From NCBI GenBank assembly GCA_943787795.1, contig CALSNU010000002.1, forward strand, positions 758,158 through 822,157: a DNA stretch of 64,000 nt, given 5' to 3'. Made by a program: the position numbers and the translations under genes. The DNA is from an uncultured bacterium (GTDB lineage Bacteria; Planctomycetota; UBA1135; GCA-002686595). This document shows positions 4,018 to 53,965 of this stretch, piece after piece (position 1 is the first letter of the stretch; every line of letters begins with the position of its first letter). The notes beneath the pieces are model-generated. The model saw nothing but the letters and a program-made list of their open reading frames with translations. It made no database searches and was not told where the DNA came from.

Positions 4018-7000
4018 TCAGTGGAAGTCCCTCGACCCGCCCTGCATTCCGGCGGCGAGGTCGTCGAGGCTCTCGAAGCGGTCGACGATGAGGTGGACGA
4101 CCTCGCCCGCGCGGTCGATGCGGCCCTCGACGAGGAGGAGGACGCCGTGGCGGGCGGTGGCGCGGTGGCGCTCGTAGGTCCTGGGGTGGACGACGAGGTT
4201 GGAGGTGCCGGTCTCGTCCTCGAGGGTGATGAAGATGATCCCCTGGGCGGTGGCGGGGCGCTGGCGGACGAGGACCATGCCGGCGACGGCGACGCAGGCG
4301 TCCTGGGGGCAGCGGGTGGGGTCGAGGAGGGCGGCGGCGGTGAGGGCGCCGCGGCGGTCGAGGGCGGGGCGCAGGAAGGAGACGGGGTGGGCCTTGAGGG
4401 ACAGGCCCTGGGTGGCGTAGTCGCGGACCACCTCGGTGAGGGGGGCGATGGGGGGCAGGGCCTCGGCGCCGGCGCCGCCGTCGGTGTCCACGTGGGCGAA
4501 GAGGCCGGGCTCGGAGAGGTCCTCGTCCCGTAGGGCGCGCACGGCCCAGAGGGCGGCCTTGCGATCGAGCTCGAGGGAGCCGAAGGCGTCGGCGGAGGCC
4601 AGGGGACGCAGGCGGGAGGCGCGCAGGCCGGAGCGGCGCTGGAGCTCGTCCACCGAGCGGAAGGGGCGGCCCAGGCGCTCGCGGGCTGTGGCGATGGCGT
4701 CGGCGGCGGGCCGGCGCAGGCCCTTCACGAGGCGCATGCCCAGGCGCAGGGCCGCGCCCTCCATGGAGCAGTCCCACTGGCTGTGGTTCACGTCGACCGG
4801 GCGCACCTCGACCCCGTGGCGCTCGGCGTCCTGGACGAGCTGGGCGGGGGCGTAGAAGCCCATGGGCTGGCTGTTGATCAGCGCGCCGCAGAAGGCGCCG
4901 GGGTGGTAGAGCTTGAGCCACGAGGACACGTAGACCAGCAGCGCGAAGCTCGCGGCGTGGGACTCGGGGAAGCCGTACTCGCTGAAGCCCTCCAGCTGGC
5001 GGAAGATGCGCTGGGCGAAGGCCTCGTCGTAGCCGTTGTCGAGCATGCCCTCCACCAGCTGCTCGCCGTAGCGCTGCATCAGGTCGCTCTTGCGCTTCCA
5101 CGCGGCCATGGCCCGCCGCAGCTTGTCTGCCTCGCCGGGCGTGAAGCCGGCGGCCACCACCGCCAGCGCCATGGCTTGCTCCTGGAAGAGCGGCACGCCG
5201 AGGGTCTTCTCGAGCACCCGCCGCACCTCCGGGCTCGGGTAGGTGACCGCCTCGGTCCCGTCCCGCCGCCGCAAGTAGGGGTGCACCATGTCCCCCTGGA
5301 TCGGCCCCGGCCGCACGATCGCCACCTCGACCACCAGGTCGTAGAACTCCACCGGCTTCAGCCGCGGCAGCATCGACATCTGCGCCCGCGACTCGATCTG
5401 GAAGACGCCCATGGTGTCGGCGCGGCAGATCATCTCGTACACCGCCGGGTCCTCGGGCGGGATGGTGTGCATGGTGAAGCCGCCGGCCTCGGGCACCTCG
5501 AAGCCGCGCTCCTCCCCGCTCTCGTCCACCAGCTCGAAGGTCTTGCGGATGGCAGTGAGCATCCCGAGGCCCAGGAGGTCCACCTTGAGGATCCCCAGCG
5601 CGTCGATGTCGTCCTTGTCCCACTCGATCACCGTGCGGTCCGCCATGGACGCGTTCTCGATGGGGACCATCTCGGTCAGGAGGTCCTCGGTGATCACGAA
5701 GCCGCCCACGTGCTGGGAGAGGTGGCGGGGGAAGCCGAGGATCTCCTTGGTCAGCGCCACGAAGCGGCGGGTGGCGGGCGCCTGGGGGTCGAGGCCGTGG
5801 GCGGCGAGGCCCACGCTGCCGTTCTCCTCGGCGGCGGCGCCGACGCCGTCGGTCCACCAGTCGATGTCCTTGGCGAGGGCGTCCACCAGCTCCGGCGAGA
5901 AGCCGAGCGCCTTGCCAACGTCCCGCACGGCGCTGCGGCCGCGGTAGCTGATGACCTCGGCGGTCAGCGCGGCGCGGTCCCGGCCGTAGCGCCGGTACAC
6001 GTACTGCAGCACCTCCTCGCGCCGCTCGTGCTCGAAGTCGATGTCGATGTCGGGCGGTTCGCCGCGCTCCTTGGAGAGGAAGCGCTCGAACAGCAGGTCG
6101 ATACGGTCGGGGTCCACCGCCGTCACCCCGAGGCAGTAGCACACCGCCGAGTTCGCCGCCGCGCCGCGCCCCTGGCACATGATCTCCCGCGACCGGGCGA
6201 AGCGCACGATGTCGTGCACCGTGAGGAAGTACGGCGCGTAGTCGAGCTCCTCGATCAGCTGGAACTCGTGCTCGATGCGCGCCCGGGTCTCGGGCGGCAC
6301 GCCGTGCGGGTAGCGCTCCGCCGCCCCGAGCCAGGTCTCGTCCACCAGGGTCTCCAGGGCCGTCCGCCCGTCCGTGCGCACCTCCGAGGGGTAGTGGTAG
6401 CGCAGCTCCGAGAGGGAGAAGCGCGCCGCCTCCTGGGCCAGCTCCGCCGCGCGCGCCGTGAGGTCGTCGTGGCCGCGGAACAGGGCCGTCATCTCGGCCG
6501 GCGTCTTCAGGCGCCGCTCGGCGTTGGGGAACAGGTCGGCGCCCACGGTGTCCACGGGCCGGCCCACGCGGATGGCGGTGAGCACGTCCTGCAGCGCCCG
6601 CCGCCGCCGCTCGTGGTAGTGCACGTCGTTGAGGGCGACCAGCGGCGCGTCCACCCGCGCCCCGAGGCGCGCGGTGCGCTCACGCTCGGCCCGGTCGTCG
6701 GGCCCGTACAGGGCGCAGGCCCCGAGGAACAGGCGGTCCGGGTTCATGGCGCCGCGCAGCCGGGACACGGCGCGCTCGTGCTGCGTCCAGGTCGGCTGCG
6801 CCACCGCGAGCTCCGGCGGGAGCACCACGGCGAGCAGGCCCTCCTGGTGCTCGAGCAGGTCGTCGAGCTCCAGGTGGCACGACCCCTTCTCCGCCCGCCG
6901 CTTGCCGCGGGTGAGCAGCCGCGAGAGCCGCCCGTAGCCCGCGCGGTCCCGGGGGAACGCGAGCACCTCGGGGGCGCCCCCCTCCTCGAGGTCGAAGCTG

Positions 7001-7314
7001 AGCCGCGCGCCCACCGCGAGCCCGATGCCGCACTCCTCCGCCGCCACGTGGGCGCGCACCACGCCGGCGAGGGAGTTGCGGTCCGCGATGGCGGCGGCCC
7101 GGTGGCCGAGGGCGGCGGCGGTGTGCACCAGCTCCTCGGGGTGGCTCGCGCCCCGCAGGAAGCTGAAGTTCGACGCCACCGCGAGCTCGGCGTACGGCGT
7201 CCCGTCCGCGGTGTCCGCCGCGTCCCCCGGGCACGCCTCCCCGCCGGGCCCGGCGAGGGCGCCGGGCGCCTTGGCCGGGTGGGGGACGAGCTTGGTGGAG
7301 GGGATCTCGGGCAC
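4018..7314 (-). CDS. dnaE2: Error-prone DNA polymerase III alpha subunit DnaE2 (ImuC)
   Basis: YAEL..SNFSFLRGASHPEEL PHP start, GRGAAANS, PDIDIDFEHERREEV, HLSQHVGG, GFPESHAASF, NSQPMGFY, and the C-terminal SRDFH typical of DnaE2. Confidence 0.97.
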   Translation of the reverse strand: MPEIPSTKLVPHPAKAPGALAGPGGEACPGDAADTADGTPYAELAVASNFSFLRGASHPEELVHTAAALGHRAAAIADRNSLAGVVRAHVAAEECGIGLAVGARLSFDLEEGGAPEVLAFPRDRAGYGRLSRLLTRGKRRAEKGSCHLELDDLLEHQEGLLAVVLPPELAVAQPTWTQHERAVSRLRGAMNPDRLFLGACALYGPDDRAERERTARLGARVDAPLVALNDVHYHERRRRALQDVLTAIRVGRPVDTVGADLFPNAERRLKTPAEMTALFRGHDDLTARAAELAQEAARFSLSELRYHYPSEVRTDGRTALETLVDETWLGAAERYPHGVPPETRARIEHEFQLIEELDYAPYFLTVHDIVRFARSREIMCQGRGAAANSAVCYCLGVTAVDPDRIDLLFERFLSKERGEPPDIDIDFEHERREEVLQYVYRRYGRDRAALTAEVISYRGRSAVRDVGKALGFSPELVDALAKDIDWWTDGVGAAAEENGSVGLAAHGLDPQAPATRRFVALTKEILGFPRHLSQHVGGFVITEDLLTEMVPIENASMADRTVIEWDKDDIDALGILKVDLLGLGMLTAIRKTFELVDESGEERGFEVPEAGGFTMHTIPPEDPAVYEMICRADTMGVFQIESRAQMSMLPRLKPVEFYDLVVEVAIVRPGPIQGDMVHPYLRRRDGTEAVTYPSPEVRRVLEKTLGVPLFQEQAMALAVVAAGFTPGEADKLRRAMAAWKRKSDLMQRYGEQLVEGMLDNGYDEAFAQRIFRQLEGFSEYGFPESHAASFALLVYVSSWLKLYHPGAFCGALINSQPMGFYAPAQLVQDAERHGVEVRPVDVNHSQWDCSMEGAALRLGMRLVKGLRRPAADAIATARERLGRPFRSVDELQRRSGLRASRLRPLASADAFGSLELDRKAALWAVRALRDEDLSEPGLFAHVDTDGGAGAEALPPIAPLTEVVRDYATQGLSLKAHPVSFLRPALDRRGALTAAALLDPTRCPQDACVAVAGMVLVRQRPATAQGIIFITLEDETGTSNLVVHPRTYERHRATARHGVLLLVEGRIDRAGEVVHLIVDRFESLDDLAAGMQGGSRDFH

Positions 7315-7322
7315 GCTTAGAT

Positions 7323-7339
7323 GGTAGGTTTTTGTTAGG
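7323..7339 (-). promoter_or_regulatory. Putative DNA-damage operator CCTAACAAAAACCTACC overlapping a -10-like TACCAT
   Basis: 16/17 identical to the site upstream of imuA (53949-53965); both end 8 nt before the start codon. Confidence 0.7.
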
Positions 7340-7451: not shown

Positions 7452-8654
7452 ATGCGCCTGCCCCAAGCTCTCGCCACCCTCCTCGTCCTCGCCCTCCCGG
7501 CTGCAGCCCAGGTCACCTGGACCGTCGGCGGCCCGAACGGTCAGTTCGCCACGATCCAGGAGGCGCTCGCGGTGGCGGGTCCGGACGACCTGGTGGACGT
7601 GCAGCCCGGCACCTACCCGGGGTTCACCATGTCGAGCCCGGCCCGGGTGATGGGTCGGAACGGAGTCCAGGTGAACGGCCTGAGCCGGATCGTCGGCCTC
7701 CCGCCCGGGAGCACCGCGCTGATCGCGGACCTCACCGTGGACGCGTTTCAGGCGATCGACTGTGAGGGTTCAACGTTGGTCGACGGGATCGTCACCCGAT
7801 CCTTCGAGGCCCGCGGTTGCAGCGACCTTCGAGTTCGGAAGCTTGAGGCCACGGCGAACTGGATCACCTCCACCCCGGCGGCCGTGGTGATCGACGACTC
7901 GCGGGTCCAGCTCGAGGCCTCGACGATCCTGGGTGAGTCGAGCTCCTCCGCCGACGGTGGCCCCGGGCTCATCGCCACCGGCGGGTCGTTCCTGCACCTC
8001 ATGGGCAGCCGAGTGGAAGGGGGCATGGGCGGGGCCGAGTTCGACCTCTTCACCATGTACGCCCCTGACGGCGGGGACGGCATGACGCTGGAGGGAGCCT
8101 CTGCGGTCCGCATCGTCCGCTCCGAGGTGATCGGAGGCGGCGGTGGATGGCACAACTACGCCGGCGGAGGTTTCAACTGCTACGACGGCTTCCACGGTCC
8201 CGGGCTCCGCCAGTGCGGCGGGCACTCGCAGACGTGGGAAAGCGAGATCCGCGACGGCTACTGGAATGGGAGCTTCACGTCCCCGGGGCCGCCCTTCGTC
8301 ATGAGCTGCGGTGCCACCCTCACGAGCGCGACGGACCTCCCGGGGCTGACGCTCACCGGCCCGCTCACCGCGGGCTCCAACTTCGACCTCGCCGCGTCCG
8401 CCGGGGTCGGCACCAGCCTGCGCCTGGTCTTCGGACGCAGGACCGACCTCGACGTGACCCTCGGCACCCAGATCCCTCGCCTCGTGGAGCCCCTGAGGAT
8501 CGCGTCCCTGGGGTCGGTCCCGGCCACCGGCGAGGCCCACGTCCAGGGCACAGTCCCGACCTGGCCCCGAGGCACCCAGTTCTTCCTGCAGGTCTCGCGC
8601 ACCGGCGCCACGGGGACCGACTTCTCGAACTCCACGCTCTTCCTGGTGAGGTAG
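7452..8654 (+). CDS. Secreted protein, probable right-handed beta-helix (pectin-lyase-like) fold with C-terminal beta-sandwich
   Basis: Signal peptide MRLPQALATLLVLALPAAAQ; FATIQEAL...V.PGTY start typical of beta-helix proteins; Gly-rich GGxG repeats. Confidence 0.65.
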   Translation: MRLPQALATLLVLALPAAAQVTWTVGGPNGQFATIQEALAVAGPDDLVDVQPGTYPGFTMSSPARVMGRNGVQVNGLSRIVGLPPGSTALIADLTVDAFQAIDCEGSTLVDGIVTRSFEARGCSDLRVRKLEATANWITSTPAAVVIDDSRVQLEASTILGESSSSADGGPGLIATGGSFLHLMGSRVEGGMGGAEFDLFTMYAPDGGDGMTLEGASAVRIVRSEVIGGGGGWHNYAGGGFNCYDGFHGPGLRQCGGHSQTWESEIRDGYWNGSFTSPGPPFVMSCGATLTSATDLPGLTLTGPLTAGSNFDLAASAGVGTSLRLVFGRRTDLDVTLGTQIPRLVEPLRIASLGSVPATGEAHVQGTVPTWPRGTQFFLQVSRTGATGTDFSNSTLFLVR

Positions 8655-43476: not shown

Positions 43477-43548
43477 GGGGCCGACCGGGCAGCGCGGTCC
43501 CTGCTAGAGTCTCGACTCGGCGTGGCGCCTTCGAGCCAGCCGCCAGCG

Positions 43549-46500
43549 ATGGACCCTCACCCCGATCAGCCCGCCGCGAGACCAGGCATCGCCGCTCCGA
43601 CCCCGGTCGGCGGAGACCCGTCGAGAGAGGCCGCGGAGGTGGAGTCCGCCGCAGTAAAGGCCGCGGCAGCGGAATCGGCGGCAGTGGAATCGGCGGCAGC
43701 GGAATCCGCGGCGGCGGAGCGCGAGCGCGTCATGGGCCTGTTCCAGGTGTTGCGGGACTCGATCCAGATCGCCCTGGAGTCGGGCGTGCCCGAGACCGCA
43801 TCCGCCCGGTACGACCTGGCCCGGTCCAGCCACGCGGAGTTGCTCGAGGTGGGCCTCCCGCCGGAGATCGAGGCGCAGCTGAAGGCCTTCATGGTCGACC
43901 TCGAGGCGCGCTTCCCCACCGCGTGGCGCATCAACGCCGCCGCGAGCCTGATCGAGCGCGCGAGCGCGGCGCGGCGGGCGGGGGTGCAGCGGGCGCGCCT
44001 CGAGGAGGCCCGCACCCTGCTGGTCGATGCCCAGGGCGTCGAGGGAGTGGACCAGGACGTCATCGGGCGGCACCTCCGCGCGCTCGAGGAAGACCTTGGG
44101 CGCCTCGACGCGGATGACGGCGGCGTGATCGAGCTCGCGACTCCCGAGTCGCGGGAGGGCACCTCGCAGGCAGCGGCCCAGGCGGGGACAGCCCCCGGGG
44201 AAGCAGCCCTCGGGGACGACTTGGAGGCCGCGCTCCGTGGGGCGGCGGAGGAGCGCGAGGAGACGGGCGCCGCGCCGCGGGTGGAGATCTGCCTCGAGCT
44301 GCTCCCGCGGGTCCACCTGGCGATGCTCCGCGGCCATCGGGCGCCCGTACACGCGCTGAAGGTCCGCAACGTGTCCGCCACGGGCCTCCCCGCCTCCAGG
44401 GTGATGCTGACCGCGACGCCGGCGTTCTTCCCGGACGCGGTCATCGAGCTCCCGCCGCTCGCGCCGGGAGGGGAGCTGGAGCTCGGCGCCGACCAGCTGG
44501 AAGGTCCCCTGCGCTACGACCCGGCGCTCCTGGCCCGGCTGACCGAGCGCGCAGAGGGCTCGGTCGTCGCGCGCGCCCTGTCGGGCGAGGGGCACGAGCT
44601 CGGCTACGCGCGGGCCGCCTGGGAGCTTCACCCGGCGGACTCCTGGCCGGGCATCTCGGCCCTCCCGGAGGTGCTCGCGGCCTTCGTCCTGCCCAACGCG
44701 CCCTTCGTGACGTGGCTGCTGTCAGCGGCGGCCCAAAGGCTCGAGCGGGCGGGCCACGAGCCGGCGCTCAGCGGCTATCAGTCCCGCGATCCGATCCATG
44801 CGCTGCACATGGTCGAGGCCATCTACGGGGCCCTGCTGGACGCACAGATCAGCTACGCCAACCACCCGGCCAGCTTCGAGAGTGACGGGCAGCGCGTGCG
44901 CTTTCCCGCCGCCATCGAACAGGCGCGACTGGCCACCTGCCTGGACGTCTCGCTGCTGGCCGCAGCGGCCATGGAGCAGGTGGGCCTCCACCCCATCGTC
45001 ATCGTCATCCGCGGTCACGCCTTCGTGGGCGCCTGGCTGGTGGAGCGCACCTTCTCGAACCCCCTGGTGGAGGAGCCGCTGCGCCTCTCGAAGCGGGTCG
45101 AGCTGGCCGAGATCTGCGTCTTTGACCCCACGGGAGCCTGCCACCGGCCCTCCCCTGACTTCGCGGGTGCCCGCGAGGTGGCGGAGCGTGAGCTGCTGGA
45201 TCGGACGGCGTTCCGCTTCGCGGTGGACGTGGCGAGGGCCCGCCGCGGGGGCATGCTGCCGCTCCCCACCTTCGCCGCCGATGGCTCGGGAGCGCCCAGC
45301 GCTGGCGTCGCACCCAGCGCGGCCATGCCGACAGCCTCGGCCCGAGACCTGGAGGCTGACCTCAAGGCGTACCTGGAGGCGGACCGGCTGCGCCGAGAGG
45401 CGGAGGAGACACCTGAGACGCGGCTGGATCGCTGGCTCCGTCAGCTCCTCGACCTGACCATGCGGAACCGGCTCTTGAACTCCTCCAGCGGGAGCAAGCG
45501 GGTCATCCCGCTGCTCGGGAGCAAGCTCGACGCCGTGGAGGATCGCCTGGCGGCGGGCCGCACGTTCGCCGTCCTCGAGCGCCCGTCGGAGCTGCCTGGC
45601 AAGGGAGCGCCGGATGAGGAGGCCATCCGCGGCCTGGATGCCCTGCTGACAGCGGGCGTCGAGGAGGGGCAGCTCCGGTCCTCTCTGGACGCCGCGGAGC
45701 TTGAGGTCCGCCTGACGAACGTGTACAGGGAGGCCCGCACGGCGCGCGAGGAGGGCGGGGTCAACAGCCTCTACCTTGCGGTCGGCTTCCTCTCCTATCG
45801 AGAGACTCGCCAGGCCACCCGTGTGCGTCGCGCGCCGCTCCTGCTCGTCCCGCTCGAGATCAAGCGCAAGTCGGGGCGCGCCGGCTACTCGCTGGTGAAG
45901 GGAGGGGATGAGACACGCATCAACGTGACCCTGCTGGAGTACCTGCGCCGGGACCACGACGTGAACATCGCCGGCCTCGACCCGTTGCCCGAGGACGAGA
46001 ACGGCGTCGACGTCGCGCTCGTGCTCCGGCTCATCAAGGACGCCATCAAGGACGAGGACGGATGGGAGGTCACCGAGGAGGGCCAGGTGGGGCTCTACTC
46101 GTTCTCGAAGTACCTGCTCTGGCGCGACCTGCGGGATCGCTCCGATGTCCTGCGGGAGAACGCCCTGGTGGCACACCTCCTGGACCGGCCCCGCGAGCCG
46201 TTCGAGGAGGCGGGTGCTGCGCTCTCGCCGGGCGAGCTGGACGCGGAGATCGGAGCGGACGAGGTCTTCGCGCCGCTCTCCTACGACTCGACCCAGCTCA
46301 GCGCGATCCTCGCCGCGGCTCGTGGGCGGACGATGGTCCTCGAGGGCCCTCCGGGAACGGGCAAGTCGCAGACCATCACCAACCTGATCGCACACGTCAT
46401 CGCCCAGGGGCAGCGAGTCCTGTTCGTCTCGGAGAAGATGGCCGCGCTGGACGTGGTGCACCGACGGCTCCGCGGCCTGGGGCTCGGGCCCGCGTGCCTC

Positions 46501-49500
46501 GAGCTGCACTCGAACAAGGCCAACAAGAAGGGCGTCCTGGAGCAGTTCAAGGAGTCCCTCGAAGAGGGGCGGGTTCGTGGCGCGCGACGTCGGCGCTGGG
46601 AGGAGGTCGCCGAAGAGGTCGATGCCGCGCGGGGCCGGCTCAACCGCCACGTGGACGCGCTGCACCGCGAGCGCCGCTCCGGGGAGTCGATCCACGGGGT
46701 CATCGCCGAGCATCGCTCGGCCTCCCGCACGGCGGACGCGACCCTGAAGCTAGACCTGGGCGACCCCACCGCCGTGAGCGCAGAGGAGCTCGACCGCTGG
46801 CGCCGCGCCCTCGGGGACCTGGACCCGGTGGCCCGCGAGCAGCTGGTGTCGCCGGAGCATCCCCTCCTGCTGGTGGGGCGGAGGGAGTACTCGCCGATCA
46901 TCGAGGATGAGACCCTGGCCGACCTCAAGGCGTTCGACGGGGCGGCGTCCGAGTTCCTGGCCGCGGCCGACGGTGTCCTCGAGCTCCTCGGGCAGGCCTC
47001 CCCCGCCACGCGCGCGGGGTGGGACCTGCTGCTCGACGTGGCCGGGGCGCTGGAGGGCGCCCCGGAGCTGGGCGGCGCCGCGGCAGGCACGTTGGAGGAT
47101 GGGCCGCATCTCGCTGGAGCAGCCGAGCGCCTGAAGGCCGCGACGGACCTGGCGGCGCTGGAGGCAGGCTTCGATGCCCGTTATCGCGCCGCGCCCCGCT
47201 CGCTCGACCTCGACGGGCTGGAGCGGGCGCGACGGGACACCCTTGCCAGCGGCCTGTTCGGACTGCTGACTCGCTGGCGGGGGCGTCGGACGTTGCGCGA
47301 CGCGTTCCGCGGCATCGCCCGTGAGCCAGACTCGATCGGGAGCGAGGACGCGGTCAGGGGGCTCGACGAGGTCCAGCGGGCCCTGGAGCTCGAGGGCGAC
47401 GTCGGGAGCTGCGGAGACCTCGAGCGCGCGGTCCTTGGCTCCGGCTGGGGTGGCGAGGCGCCTGACCTCGCGGCCTGTGCGGATCACCTCGATCGCGTTC
47501 AGCGGCTCGTGGAGGCCCTCGCCGCGTTCGCCCCTGACGCGGGCTCGAGCCAGCGGTCCGCGGGCGACGCGTTGTTGGCCTCCTGGGGCCAGGGGCTGAC
47601 GGACCCCGAGGGTCCGCTCGCGGTCGGCGTACGGGAGCTCAGGCCGGCGCTGCTCGAACTCGAGGCTCGCAAGGTGGCGGCCGAGGAAGCTGCGCAGCCG
47701 CTCCCGGGCGCGCCTGTCGGATGGACCCGGGACGAGGTCGCGGGCCTGCAGGCGCTGACCCTGCGCTGGACCGACCGCTGGGGTGAGCTGCGCGGTTGGA
47801 CTCGCTGGCAGGTCCTGCGCGCCGCGGCGGTCGAGGCTGGCCGCGGCGATGTGGTCGCCGCGCTCGAGGAGGGCCGGGTCCGCGGTGGTCGCGCGCGCGG
47901 CGCCTTTGATGAGGCCTATTCTCAGGCCTGGGCGCTGCACGAGATCTCCGCCGACGAAGCGCTCAAGGCCTTCGACGGCACCGATCAGCTCCGGGCCGTG
48001 GAGCGCTTCGAGAGCCTGGATGAGGAGCGCCTCGAGGCGGCGCGAGAGGAGGTCCGCCAGCGAGTCGGGGCCAAGCGCCCCCAGCCCTCGACCCTGCGCG
48101 AAAAGAACCGTGGCACGGCGCTGGGTGTCCTTCAGCGGGAGATCACCAAGAAGACCCGCCACATGGCCATTCGACGCCTGCTGGCCGAGCTCGGTGAGCT
48201 GGCGATGGAGCTCAAGCCGTGCTTCCTCATGAGCCCGATGTCGGTGGCTCAATACCTCGAGGCGGACCTCCCGCGCTTTGACCTGGTGGTCTTCGACGAG
48301 GCCTCTCAGATCCCCGTTTGGGACGGCATCGGCGCGATCGCGCGGGGCAATCAGGCCGTCATCGTCGGCGATCCCAAGCAGCTCCCGCCGACGAGCTTCT
48401 TCAGCCGCAGCGAGGACGAGGCCGTGGAGGAGGACGAGATCCAGGACCTCGAGAGCATCCTCGAGGAGTGCATCGGGGCCCAGGTGCCCACCCAGCGCCT
48501 GGCCTGGCACTACCGCAGCCGCCACGAGAGCCTCATCGCGTTCAGCAACGAGCGCTACTACGACGGCGGACTCCTCACGTTCCCGTCGAACTCCTCGGAG
48601 GGGCTCGGGGTCTCCTCGCGCTACGTCGAGGACGGCGTGTATGACAAGGGGCGTACGAGGACCAACGCGGTCGAGGCCAGGGAGGTCGTGTCGGAGGTCG
48701 TCCGCCGCCTCAAGGATCCCGCGCAGGGGTCACGCTCCATCGGCGTCGTGACGTTCAGTCAGGCGCAGCAGACCCTGGTCATGGACCTGTTCGATGGCGC
48801 GGTCCGCGAGCATCCGGAGCTGGAGCGCTTCTTTGATGAGGGCGCCGAGGAGCCGGTGTTCGTGAAGAACCTGGAGAACGTCCAGGGCGACGAGCGGGAC
48901 GTGATCGTGTTCTCCGTGGGCTACGGTCCGGACGAGCGCGGCAACGTGTCCATGAACTTCGGGCCGCTGAACAAGGACGGCGGAGAGCGACGGCTGAATG
49001 TGGCGGTCACCCGCGCACGTGAGGAGGTCCTGGTGTTCACGTCCCTGCGGCCCGATCAGATCGATCTCGCCCGGACGAGCGCGCGGGCTGTCCGCGACCT
49101 GCAGGCGTTCCTGCGCCACGCGGAGCGGGGCACGCTGAGCGTCAGCGCGACGAGCCCTGCGTCCGCGGGGTCCTCCGATGGCCTGGTGGAGCACCTCGCG
49201 GCGCGCCTCGAGGAGCGGGGGTGGGAGGTGTCCACCGGGGTGGGGGCCTCGAGCGTCCGGGTCGATGTCGCCGTCGTGCACCCCGCACGTCCCGGACGAT
49301 TCCTGGCGGGGATCGAGACCGACGGCGAGAACTACGCGCGTTCGGCCACGGCGCGGGACCGGGACCGGCTGCGCCCCATGGTGCTCACCGGCCTGGGCTG
49401 GGATCTCCTGCGGGTCTGGACCGTGGACTGGTGGCGGGACCCGGACGCCGAGGTGGAGCGCCTCGATGCATGTCTCCGGGAGCGGCTGGCCGCGGACCCG

Positions 49501-49536
49501 GGGCCAGGGACGGCGATCCGTCCGATCGAGACCTAG
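43549..49536 (+). CDS. DUF4011 - SF1 helicase - Vsr/REase-like nuclease protein (Hhe-type anti-phage defence) with N-terminal transglutaminase-like domain
   Basis: W.RQLLDLTMRNRLL (DUF4011, ~45420); GPPGTGKSQTI (46345-46368); DEASQ, GDPKQLPP, HYRS, VQGDERD, RRLNVAVTRAR; C-terminal RVDVAV...GIETDG...RDRDR...GW...RVW. Confidence 0.88.
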   Translation: MDPHPDQPAARPGIAAPTPVGGDPSREAAEVESAAVKAAAAESAAVESAAAESAAAERERVMGLFQVLRDSIQIALESGVPETASARYDLARSSHAELLEVGLPPEIEAQLKAFMVDLEARFPTAWRINAAASLIERASAARRAGVQRARLEEARTLLVDAQGVEGVDQDVIGRHLRALEEDLGRLDADDGGVIELATPESREGTSQAAAQAGTAPGEAALGDDLEAALRGAAEEREETGAAPRVEICLELLPRVHLAMLRGHRAPVHALKVRNVSATGLPASRVMLTATPAFFPDAVIELPPLAPGGELELGADQLEGPLRYDPALLARLTERAEGSVVARALSGEGHELGYARAAWELHPADSWPGISALPEVLAAFVLPNAPFVTWLLSAAAQRLERAGHEPALSGYQSRDPIHALHMVEAIYGALLDAQISYANHPASFESDGQRVRFPAAIEQARLATCLDVSLLAAAAMEQVGLHPIVIVIRGHAFVGAWLVERTFSNPLVEEPLRLSKRVELAEICVFDPTGACHRPSPDFAGAREVAERELLDRTAFRFAVDVARARRGGMLPLPTFAADGSGAPSAGVAPSAAMPTASARDLEADLKAYLEADRLRREAEETPETRLDRWLRQLLDLTMRNRLLNSSSGSKRVIPLLGSKLDAVEDRLAAGRTFAVLERPSELPGKGAPDEEAIRGLDALLTAGVEEGQLRSSLDAAELEVRLTNVYREARTAREEGGVNSLYLAVGFLSYRETRQATRVRRAPLLLVPLEIKRKSGRAGYSLVKGGDETRINVTLLEYLRRDHDVNIAGLDPLPEDENGVDVALVLRLIKDAIKDEDGWEVTEEGQVGLYSFSKYLLWRDLRDRSDVLRENALVAHLLDRPREPFEEAGAALSPGELDAEIGADEVFAPLSYDSTQLSAILAAARGRTMVLEGPPGTGKSQTITNLIAHVIAQGQRVLFVSEKMAALDVVHRRLRGLGLGPACLELHSNKANKKGVLEQFKESLEEGRVRGARRRRWEEVAEEVDAARGRLNRHVDALHRERRSGESIHGVIAEHRSASRTADATLKLDLGDPTAVSAEELDRWRRALGDLDPVAREQLVSPEHPLLLVGRREYSPIIEDETLADLKAFDGAASEFLAAADGVLELLGQASPATRAGWDLLLDVAGALEGAPELGGAAAGTLEDGPHLAGAAERLKAATDLAALEAGFDARYRAAPRSLDLDGLERARRDTLASGLFGLLTRWRGRRTLRDAFRGIAREPDSIGSEDAVRGLDEVQRALELEGDVGSCGDLERAVLGSGWGGEAPDLAACADHLDRVQRLVEALAAFAPDAGSSQRSAGDALLASWGQGLTDPEGPLAVGVRELRPALLELEARKVAAEEAAQPLPGAPVGWTRDEVAGLQALTLRWTDRWGELRGWTRWQVLRAAAVEAGRGDVVAALEEGRVRGGRARGAFDEAYSQAWALHEISADEALKAFDGTDQLRAVERFESLDEERLEAAREEVRQRVGAKRPQPSTLREKNRGTALGVLQREITKKTRHMAIRRLLAELGELAMELKPCFLMSPMSVAQYLEADLPRFDLVVFDEASQIPVWDGIGAIARGNQAVIVGDPKQLPPTSFFSRSEDEAVEEDEIQDLESILEECIGAQVPTQRLAWHYRSRHESLIAFSNERYYDGGLLTFPSNSSEGLGVSSRYVEDGVYDKGRTRTNAVEAREVVSEVVRRLKDPAQGSRSIGVVTFSQAQQTLVMDLFDGAVREHPELERFFDEGAEEPVFVKNLENVQGDERDVIVFSVGYGPDERGNVSMNFGPLNKDGGERRLNVAVTRAREEVLVFTSLRPDQIDLARTSARAVRDLQAFLRHAERGTLSVSATSPASAGSSDGLVEHLAARLEERGWEVSTGVGASSVRVDVAVVHPARPGRFLAGIETDGENYARSATARDRDRLRPMVLTGLGWDLLRVWTVDWWRDPDAEVERLDACLRERLAADPGPGTAIRPIET

Positions 49537-52986: not shown

Positions 52987-53940
52987 CTAGCCGGCGCCTC
53001 GCCTCCGCTCGTGTGCGGTTCGGAGGGCGAGGATCTGGCTCCGGTGGAGCTGCTGGGCTCCCTTGGCGCGCAGGAGGGTCGCGCTCCAGGCCGGGCCGTC
53101 GCCGGCGCTCTCCCGCCGGCTGATCCGCCAGCGGGTGGTGGCGGCCGAGACCTCGCGTTCCTCTCCCGGTGGCCGCGCGAGTAGCACGAGGGCCTCGGAA
53201 GATGTGGCCGCGAGCTGGAGCCTGCGAGTGGCCGCCATCCCGAGCCCCGAGCCATCGGCGATCACGGCGGTGACGCCGGGGCACCGCAGGGCCGTGTCGA
53301 TGGTCCAGAGGCGCAGGCTGGCGTCCTTGGGGGCGGCGAAGATGGACCGCTCGATGAGTCCCACTTCTGTGGGGGCTCGGTCGTGAGGTTCTGCGTGAGG
53401 TTCAGCGCGAGGTTCAGCGCCGGGTTCTGCGCCGGACTTGGCGCCGGCCTCCTCTCCGGAGCCTTCAGAGAGGGCGTCGTCCCCGGGCTCCAGGTGGACC
53501 TCGAACTCTCCGGCGGAGCGCTCCGCGTCGGGCGCCTGCTGCCCTTCGACCACAGCGGGTCGTCGCGCGACGGCGCCCGGGTAAGGCCAGACCCGACGTC
53601 CGATCCAGACGACCGAGGCGGGGGCGCTGCGGGCGGCGGCGTCGGAGGCGGCTCGGCGGGCGAGGTGCGTGAGGAGGAGCAGGGGAGGGCTCCACTCCCG
53701 CGTGCTGCGGTCCGCGAGAGCGGGGTCTGCACCGCCGACGCCAAACCACTCGTGGACGCACCCGCGGACGAGGCCGGCGGCGCCGCTTGTGGAGCCCGTG
53801 ACACGGTCGATCGAGGGCCAGCCGCTGGAGACCGCGCGGGAAGGCCGCCCGAAGACCTCGGGGTCAGGCTCCGGAGCGCTGGTCAGAGGTCCGGTTCGCA
53901 GCTGCTCGAGCAGCGCCTCGATGCCTTGGGGCGATCGCAT
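52987..53940 (-). CDS. imuA: ImuA-like RecA-fold mutagenesis protein
   Basis: SGWPSIDR..G...GLVRGCVHEW, VVWIG, LW.IDTALRC..V.AVIAD, ATRRLQLAA, SAATTRW; directly upstream of imuB. Confidence 0.85.
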   Translation of the reverse strand: MRSPQGIEALLEQLRTGPLTSAPEPDPEVFGRPSRAVSSGWPSIDRVTGSTSGAAGLVRGCVHEWFGVGGADPALADRSTREWSPPLLLLTHLARRAASDAAARSAPASVVWIGRRVWPYPGAVARRPAVVEGQQAPDAERSAGEFEVHLEPGDDALSEGSGEEAGAKSGAEPGAEPRAEPHAEPHDRAPTEVGLIERSIFAAPKDASLRLWTIDTALRCPGVTAVIADGSGLGMAATRRLQLAATSSEALVLLARPPGEEREVSAATTRWRISRRESAGDGPAWSATLLRAKGAQQLHRSQILALRTAHERRRGAG

Positions 53941-53948
53941 GGCGCGAG

Positions 53949-53965
53949 GGTAGGGTTTTGTTAGG
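53949..53965 (-). promoter_or_regulatory. Putative DNA-damage operator CCTAACAAAACCCTACC overlapping a -10-like TACCCT
   Basis: 16/17 match to the dnaE2 upstream site, with the same 8-nt spacing to the start codon. Confidence 0.7.

Follow-up and report, generated by a model that had tools for sequence, protein, structure and literature searches.

The window, by which we mean the whole 64,000-nucleotide stretch of DNA that was analyzed, contains the two parts of a split mutasome cassette. The features relevant here, all on the minus strand, are the following:

4018..7314, minus strand: dnaE2, error-prone DNA polymerase III alpha, 1098 aa (NF004225, 1405 bits against a cut-off of 939; also recognized by Pfam)
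7321..7326, minus strand: -10-like hexamer TAnnnT of dnaE2, overlapping half-site 2 of the operator, 6 nt before the GTG; predicted leaderless promoter
7323..7339, minus strand: predicted LexA operator of dnaE2, two 6-nt half-sites with an 11-bp period, 22.3 bits
51303..52889, minus strand: imuB-like gene, 528 aa (IMS/IMS_C match), after the imuA-like gene
52987..53940, minus strand: imuA-like gene, 317 aa (NF033429, E = 6.5e-11, under the 150-bit cut-off), preceding imuB
53947..53952, minus strand: -10-like hexamer TAnnnT of imuA, overlapping half-site 2 of the operator, 6 nt before the ATG; predicted leaderless promoter
53949..53965, minus strand: predicted LexA operator of imuA-imuB, 22.0 bits, outside the training set of the matrix

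The 17-mers at 7323-7339 and 53949-53965 differ by a single base, and both end 8 nt upstream of a start codon, the GTG at 7314 for dnaE2 and the ATG at 53940 for imuA. The original prediction described this near-identical pair with its common offset and read it as the 15-nt pattern CCTA-N7-CCTA (7325-7339 and 53951-53965, both minus strand). Inspection of the sequence agreed with that description, and the pattern occurs twice in the window against 0.15 times expected by chance, a count that none of 100 shuffles reached. As also noted there, it lies before no other gene of the window, its only matches being these two sites. The imuA-imuB genes, which extend to 53940, and dnaE2 are about 44 kb apart, each with a separate operator and -10-like hexamer; the region upstream of the imuB-like gene holds no box of its own (best score 8.1 bits). 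A separate site for dnaE2 was also seen in the same-genus loci examined, and in one relative (G018) dnaE2 comes after an imuB-like gene. Beside the dnaE2 box, a 400-aa open reading frame on the plus strand (7452-8654) begins 112 nt away; its start resembles a signal peptide, and Pfam gives no match for it. Near imuB lies a large plus-strand gene (43522-49536) that combines DUF4011, AAA_11-12 helicase and MTES_1575 nuclease domains, and no box was found upstream of it among the genome matches of at least 13 bits. Automatic gene calling missed the imuA start as well as the open reading frame that precedes lexA.

The motif was learned de novo by EM from sequences of relatives, namely 36 regions that lie upstream of recA, dnaE2 or radical-SAM genes; this genome and all lexA regions were excluded. 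The output was cC(T/G)AAC, an A-rich 5-nt spacer and cC(G/T)A(A/C)C, with a logLR of 278 compared to 68 for shuffled input. The true motif is hence a direct repeat, CCKAMC-N5-CCKAMC (K = G or T, M = A or C), with an 11-bp period. CCTA-N7-CCTA had to be given up as the consensus, since the repeat is wider and its third base can be G or T; the shorter pattern fails to pick up the recA site and two of the lexA sites, and it lets in a GC-rich palindromic site at C5:10888. A palindromic reading was likewise rejected, as nowhere in the genome do two 6-nt half-sites stand in inverted orientation at spacer 5.

Eight of the nine best matrix matches in the genome lie before dnaE2, imuA, a radical-SAM gene, recA, lexA (three sites) and mrfA, and those of imuA, lexA and mrfA were recovered though absent from the training set. 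The dnaE2 site scores best in the genome (22.3 bits), followed by imuA (22.0), recA (19.2), the three lexA sites (16-19) and mrfA (15.0). Six sites reach at least 17 bits, compared to a maximum of 16.5 in the reversed genome. Below about 17 bits the matrix performs no better than the control (22 real versus 24 reversed matches at 13 bits or more), and the mrfA site ties with one unrelated site; because of this failure against the control, the mrfA site and one lexA site (16.3 bits) rest on conservation and not on score. An extension of the regulon to the other genome matches of 13-15 bits was abandoned, these being indistinguishable from the reversed control. The exact sequence CCTAMC-N5-CCTAMC occurs five times in the genome, and all five copies precede DNA-damage genes: dnaE2, imuA, the lexA region, the TIGR03916 radical-SAM gene (with the site reversed) and a helicase with the MrfA zinc-binding domain. 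G at the third base is also used, in the recA site and in forms of the lexA region.

We also counted exact patterns, an approach that was dropped as evidence because other spacers and reversed patterns yield similar numbers. In the 4.7-Mb genome CCTA-Nx-CCTA is found 7 times at N7 versus 28 times at N8 and 22 times at N11, and the 12-letter form has 5 matches at its own spacer versus 0-4 at others. Across 40 relatives, reversed-pattern controls often match the forward counts and no consistent enrichment was detected. The evidence for the motif is therefore the position of its matches, not over-representation by count. The check proposed with the original prediction covered, among others, recA, lexA, uvr and ssb genes, and its outcome is divided: recA and lexA have sites, and uvrA, uvrB, ssb, recN and dinB of this genome have none (at most 7.0 bits in 600 nt upstream), which indicates a small regulon. 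SOS regulon content is described as varying between bacteria in the available text of PMC9578287. The uvrA gene of this genome (C6:272549-278515) is a single 1988-aa open reading frame with two full UvrA matches, a fused double UvrA, and a second UvrA-like double open reading frame is located at C2:93308-98071.

The genome, which is 85% complete, encodes a single LexA (C1:1124737-1125345) and a single RecA. LexA matches TIGR00498 with 186 bits (cut-off 111) and consists of a PF01726 helix-turn-helix and a PF00717 S24 domain. Its Ala-Gly, Ser and Lys motifs are found at residues 90, 123 and 162, and we take their catalytic roles to be those of E. coli LexA. The second S24 match of the genome looks by eye like a signal peptidase. 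The closest titled relatives of this LexA are mostly from Planctomycetota, with Saltatorellus ferox Poly30 at 76% identity. The three lexA boxes, candidate sites of autoregulation, are 1.2-1.35 kb upstream of lexA, with an unannotated open reading frame in between; this 260-aa frame in the gap C1:1125346-1126700 has no Pfam or NCBIfam match and a poor coding score, and it is possibly an SOS gene or a leader. The distance between boxes and lexA is about 0.85 to 1.3 kb across the genus and less than 600 nt in several other genera. The boxes also face a divergent gene at C1:1126915. At C3:310657-314935 a MrfA-type helicase gene (PF09369) is followed by a 385-aa open reading frame, and the box lies directly before the start codon, making this unit a candidate member of the SOS regulon. 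MrfA is linked to mitomycin repair.

As the original prediction would have it, the box is kept in the orthologous promoters of lexA, dnaE2, recA, the radical-SAM gene, mrfA and imuA. The relatives compared range from members of the genus to members of the order. Of 17 same-genus lexA loci, 16 have two to five upstream sites, in both orientations. At a threshold of 12 bits, a site precedes 15 of 17 dnaE2 orthologues and 14 of 14 TIGR03916 radical-SAM genes (reversed in all 14), and stands before recA in 21 of 30 relatives (5 of the 21 reversed), counts that overlap in part with the EM training set. The dnaE2 gene of G025, with only 99 nt upstream, and the fragment L185 were excluded from the table of relatives' sites. 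For mrfA, 19 of 30 regions across the order score at least 13 bits and six more score 12.1-12.9, with 0 in the controls. Among imuA upstream regions 15 of 18 reach 13 bits; nine of the 18 had been chosen knowing a match, and six of the other nine score at least 15. A search with NF033429 returned mostly recA, and the imuA rows were taken from its weaker matches.

The distribution of the box was then compared with the type of LexA in a phylum sample of 110 genomes, from which 90 lexA loci and the recA and dnaE2 regions were taken. Left out of these 90 were the weakest LexA matches and part of the second copies; a few of the genomes typed as "other" or "none" may therefore hide a box-type LexA. 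Loci with less than 500 nt upstream and loci of the genome's own order were excluded from the phylum counts. The LexAs were classified by a recognition-helix rule, K/R-V/I-T-x-x-x-H, written after a first set of lexA upstream results had been seen, and kin are not independent in the resulting counts. Outside the order, a site of at least 13 bits is present upstream of lexA in 24 of 45 loci with this helix type versus 0 of 41 others (reversed controls 0 and 3, respectively), or by family in 16 of 25 versus 0 of 24. The recA box follows the same division, with 10 of 32 in genomes with K/R-V/I-T-x-x-x-H LexAs versus 1 of 26 in genomes with other types and 0 of 9 in genomes without a recovered LexA. 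When EM was run on the 45 lexA upstream regions of this helix type alone it returned the same repeat, and on the 41 others an unrelated word, both runs without a shuffle control. No site of at least 13 bits was found within about 1 kb in 21 of the 45 lexA loci of this type, or at 22 of the 32 recA promoters in the corresponding genomes. A quick LexA tree, from which 12 near-identical same-genus rows were left out, gathers 36 of 38 box-bearing rows in a single group of 66 rows (SH-aLRT 96); G067 and one Ca. Uhrbacteria locus fall outside it. In a smaller tree, also quick, the box LexA type is still one side of a branch, with a support of only 77. The f13 group, whose LexA clusters with a Planctomycetales record, has no site of at least 13 bits at lexA (0 of 6), at recA (0 of 4) or at its sole dnaE2 cassette. 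The box is thus widespread in Planctomycetota but not phylum-wide. The repeat had been proposed to be the operator of a lineage-specific SOS regulator. It behaves as such an operator, with sites before lexA, recA, imuA, dnaE2, the radical-SAM gene and mrfA, but it is not confined to a narrow lineage, as the box is present in 16 of the 25 sampled Planctomycetota families with this LexA type.

Many planctomycete dnaE2 cassettes hold a second lexA, without a box (loci L353-L384). They resemble the lexA2-imuA-imuB-dnaE2 cassettes that are known elsewhere. In genomes with the box-type LexA, the box was found in 8 of 13 dnaE2 upstream stretches without a second lexA (two of the misses are cut by contig ends) versus 1 of 12 with one, as counted by hand at a threshold of 12.5, which reversed controls exceeded in 4 of 40 stretches. 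Family f51 (G087, G106, G122 and G137) has imuB-dnaE2 cassettes and two recA copies in each genome, with no LexA at E of 1e-7 or below and no box; this family possibly uses another damage regulator.

The co-occurrence with one type of recognition helix makes LexA, with good confidence, the predicted binder of the repeat, and the window sites and their kin are, on the strength of sequence comparison, most probably operators of the genome's single LexA. That the repeat is bound by a different regulator (a repressor outside the S24 family, or an activator that responds to damage), inherited together with this LexA type and also controlling lexA, seems improbable to us. Such a regulator would account for the many K/R-V/I-T-x-x-x-H lexA genes that have no strong site within 1 kb, and for the recA site that is kept in 2 of 5 relatives in which LexA was not detected, strong in G024 (84% complete) and weak in G030. 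The statement that genomes without LexA lack the box holds in only 3 of these 5 and was not used as support. Against such a regulator, the motif tracks the LexA helix type over 49 family groups and drops out where the cassette brings a second lexA; furthermore, the repeat recurs before lexA in a distant phylum (Patescibacteria, see below), and its overlap with the -10 and start region would suit a repressor better than an activator.

The overlap had been noted in the original prediction, which placed a -10-like hexamer in the second half-site, and it proved to be a constant feature: half-site 2 begins a TAnnnT hexamer in 15 of 15 imuA and 15 of 15 dnaE2 sites. The start codon follows the hexamer after 6-7 nt in all 15 imuA promoters and after 4-10 nt in 14 of 15 dnaE2 promoters, from which we infer that both promoters would be leaderless. 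The spelling of the half-sites follows the hexamer as well, since TAnnnT is completed by 13 of 14 forward half-sites spelled TACC versus 2 of 16 spelled TAAC. The earlier caveat that TACC may simply reflect the -10 element is therefore largely correct, for the spelling; it does not extend to the repeat itself, which occurs in both orientations, and this freedom of orientation means that the box is not a pure promoter element. Spelling a half-site TACC or TAAC is likely a compromise by which it can double as the -10 hexamer. These same data bear on the alternative that the whole motif belongs to the core promoter, with a -10 box and a second word upstream of it that a damage-specific sigma factor would recognize. 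The fixed distance of 6-7 nt between the completed hexamer and the start codon at imuA and most dnaE2 promoters, and the association of TACC with the hexamer (13 of 14), are what such an element would produce. However, the repeat is reversed at 14 of 14 radical-SAM promoters (where the coding strand again shows TAnnnT in 14 of 14), as well as at 5 promoters of recA and two of the lexA sites; the hexamer is in half-site 1 at mrfA and in half-site 2 at imuA and dnaE2; and the recA sites of the genus have no TAnnnT inside the box. We consider a sigma factor element very unlikely. That the matched pair is a promoter fragment duplicated when the cassette split, with no common regulator, would agree with the 16/17 identity, the same offset and the single imuA-imuB-dnaE2 cassette of other Planctomycetota, but it is largely refuted by the conserved motif at four unrelated loci (recA, lexA, radical-SAM and mrfA) and by flanks that do not match between the two window sites, and is hardly credible, even if the dnaE2 copy itself may have arisen by duplication, which would not account for the regulon.

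The box is real and very probably functional. In the proposed LexA mechanism, a LexA dimer would bind both half-sites, which are spaced by roughly one turn of the helix, and would cover the -10 and the start site of mostly leaderless promoters, so blocking RNA polymerase. The error-prone polymerase genes would be kept off until damage triggers LexA self-cleavage; RecA filaments on single-stranded DNA would provoke cleavage at the Ala-Gly site, and the loss of LexA would release dnaE2, imuA-imuB, recA, the radical-SAM gene, mrfA and the lexA unit. With about 44 kb between them, imuA-imuB and dnaE2 would each need an operator of their own, which would explain the matched pair. Binding, cleavage and damage induction are predicted here from established LexA biology (PMC9578287, PMC8565304). 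The arrangement offers no new mechanism and is a known kind of switch. What it provides for much of Planctomycetota is a predicted SOS operator and regulon (lexA, recA, imuA-imuB, dnaE2, the TIGR03916 radical-SAM gene and mrfA), together with the LexA type that likely reads the box; other planctomycete LexA types do not use it.

The box belongs to a known class, the direct-repeat SOS boxes, here in Planctomycetota and with a T-tolerant spelling shaped by the -10 overlap. The earlier statement that it matches no familiar LexA box was not borne out: the recA site and one lexA site read GAAC-N7-GAAC, the reverse complement of GTTC-N7-GTTC, which the consulted sections of three papers give as the alphaproteobacterial LexA box, for example in Caulobacter crescentus (PMC9578287 Table 1, PMC8565304, PMC3323433). 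Both boxes are direct repeats with an 11-bp period and have core targets in common (lexA, recA and imuA-imuB-dnaE2). Unlike the alphaproteobacterial half-sites, those of the planctomycetes are preceded by CC, the G is as often T, and TACC appears at the -10 overlaps; GAAC in both half-sites is confined to the recA and one lexA site and is not seen in the window sites or those of the radical-SAM gene and mrfA. The recognition helices differ as well, and the planctomycete LexAs form a separate group in trees with a single alphaproteobacterial-type row. An alphaproteobacterial-type recA site (L433) scores 7.1 bits with the planctomycete matrix. No Planctomycetota LexA box was found in the literature searched, which left out the 2016 Verrucomicrobia and 2017 Patescibacteria studies that may mention one.

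A closer resemblance was found in Patescibacteria. A locus titled Ca. Uhrbacteria has a 21.7-bit site before lexA, and a nearly identical motif emerged de novo (logLR 185 versus 60) when 30 regions upstream of lexA, taken from the class that holds this Ca. Uhrbacteria locus, were analyzed. With the planctomycete matrix 11 of the 30 regions score at least 13 bits, up to 21.7, and the controls 0. In both groups the sites are 11-bp-period repeats, CGAAC with an A-rich spacer in Patescibacteria, and the T-x-x-x-H of the recognition helix is shared. The patescibacterial sites are nearly all of the G form, in contrast to the free use of T in planctomycetes, a comparison made with our de novo motif and not with a published logo, and the helix starts with SS-P-A-T instead of K/R-V/I-T. 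The patescibacterial LexA box was reportedly described as a direct repeat and tested experimentally by Sanchez-Osuna et al. in 2017. The LexA box of Acidobacterium capsulatum, which is said to resemble that of Alphaproteobacteria (attributed to Mazon et al., 2006), is of the direct-repeat class too. The acidobacterial LexAs lie on the same side of the smaller LexA tree as the planctomycete proteins, and acidobacterial lexA and recA upstream regions score at most 11.6 bits with the planctomycete matrix. Studies of Patescibacteria and Acidobacterium are cited for direct-repeat LexA motifs in the portion of PMC7739468 available to us. The Balneolaeota LexA box presented there (PMC7739468) is also a direct repeat, found by the same comparative logic, with an AT-rich, unrelated sequence. 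For Bacteroidetes, the accessible part of PMC8565304 reports the non-canonical SOS motifs CTAA-N5-TTAG and GGA-N5-TCC. That regulon is similar to the planctomycete one (imuA-imuB-dnaE2, radical-SAM/UDG-linked genes and recA), and the word CTAA occurs in the motifs of both groups; the Bacteroidetes motifs are, as described there, palindromes bound by non-canonical S24 repressors, in contrast to the direct repeat and canonical LexA of planctomycetes.

These results bear on how a dimeric, normally palindrome-binding repressor came to recognize direct repeats, and whether this happened once or repeatedly. Several independent origins are argued for in the available text of PMC7739468. A single origin is a tentative alternative that we regard as possible though doubtful: one LexA lineage would read the 11-bp-period (C)GAAC/TAAC repeat in many Planctomycetota, Patescibacteria, probably Gemmatimonadota, Acidobacteriota and Alphaproteobacteria, and in the present genus the operator would have fused with a leaderless -10 that dictates its spelling. 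A Gemmatimonadales record (L434) has a 13.1-bit reversed direct-repeat site upstream of recA and a T-V-H-E-H LexA helix, which suggests that Gemmatimonadota use a related box. In the smaller quick LexA tree, which supports a single origin weakly, these groups fall on one side (SH-aLRT 90), with the alphaproteobacterial type represented by a single row, and the same side also holds one Bdellovibrionota and one gammaproteobacterial row.
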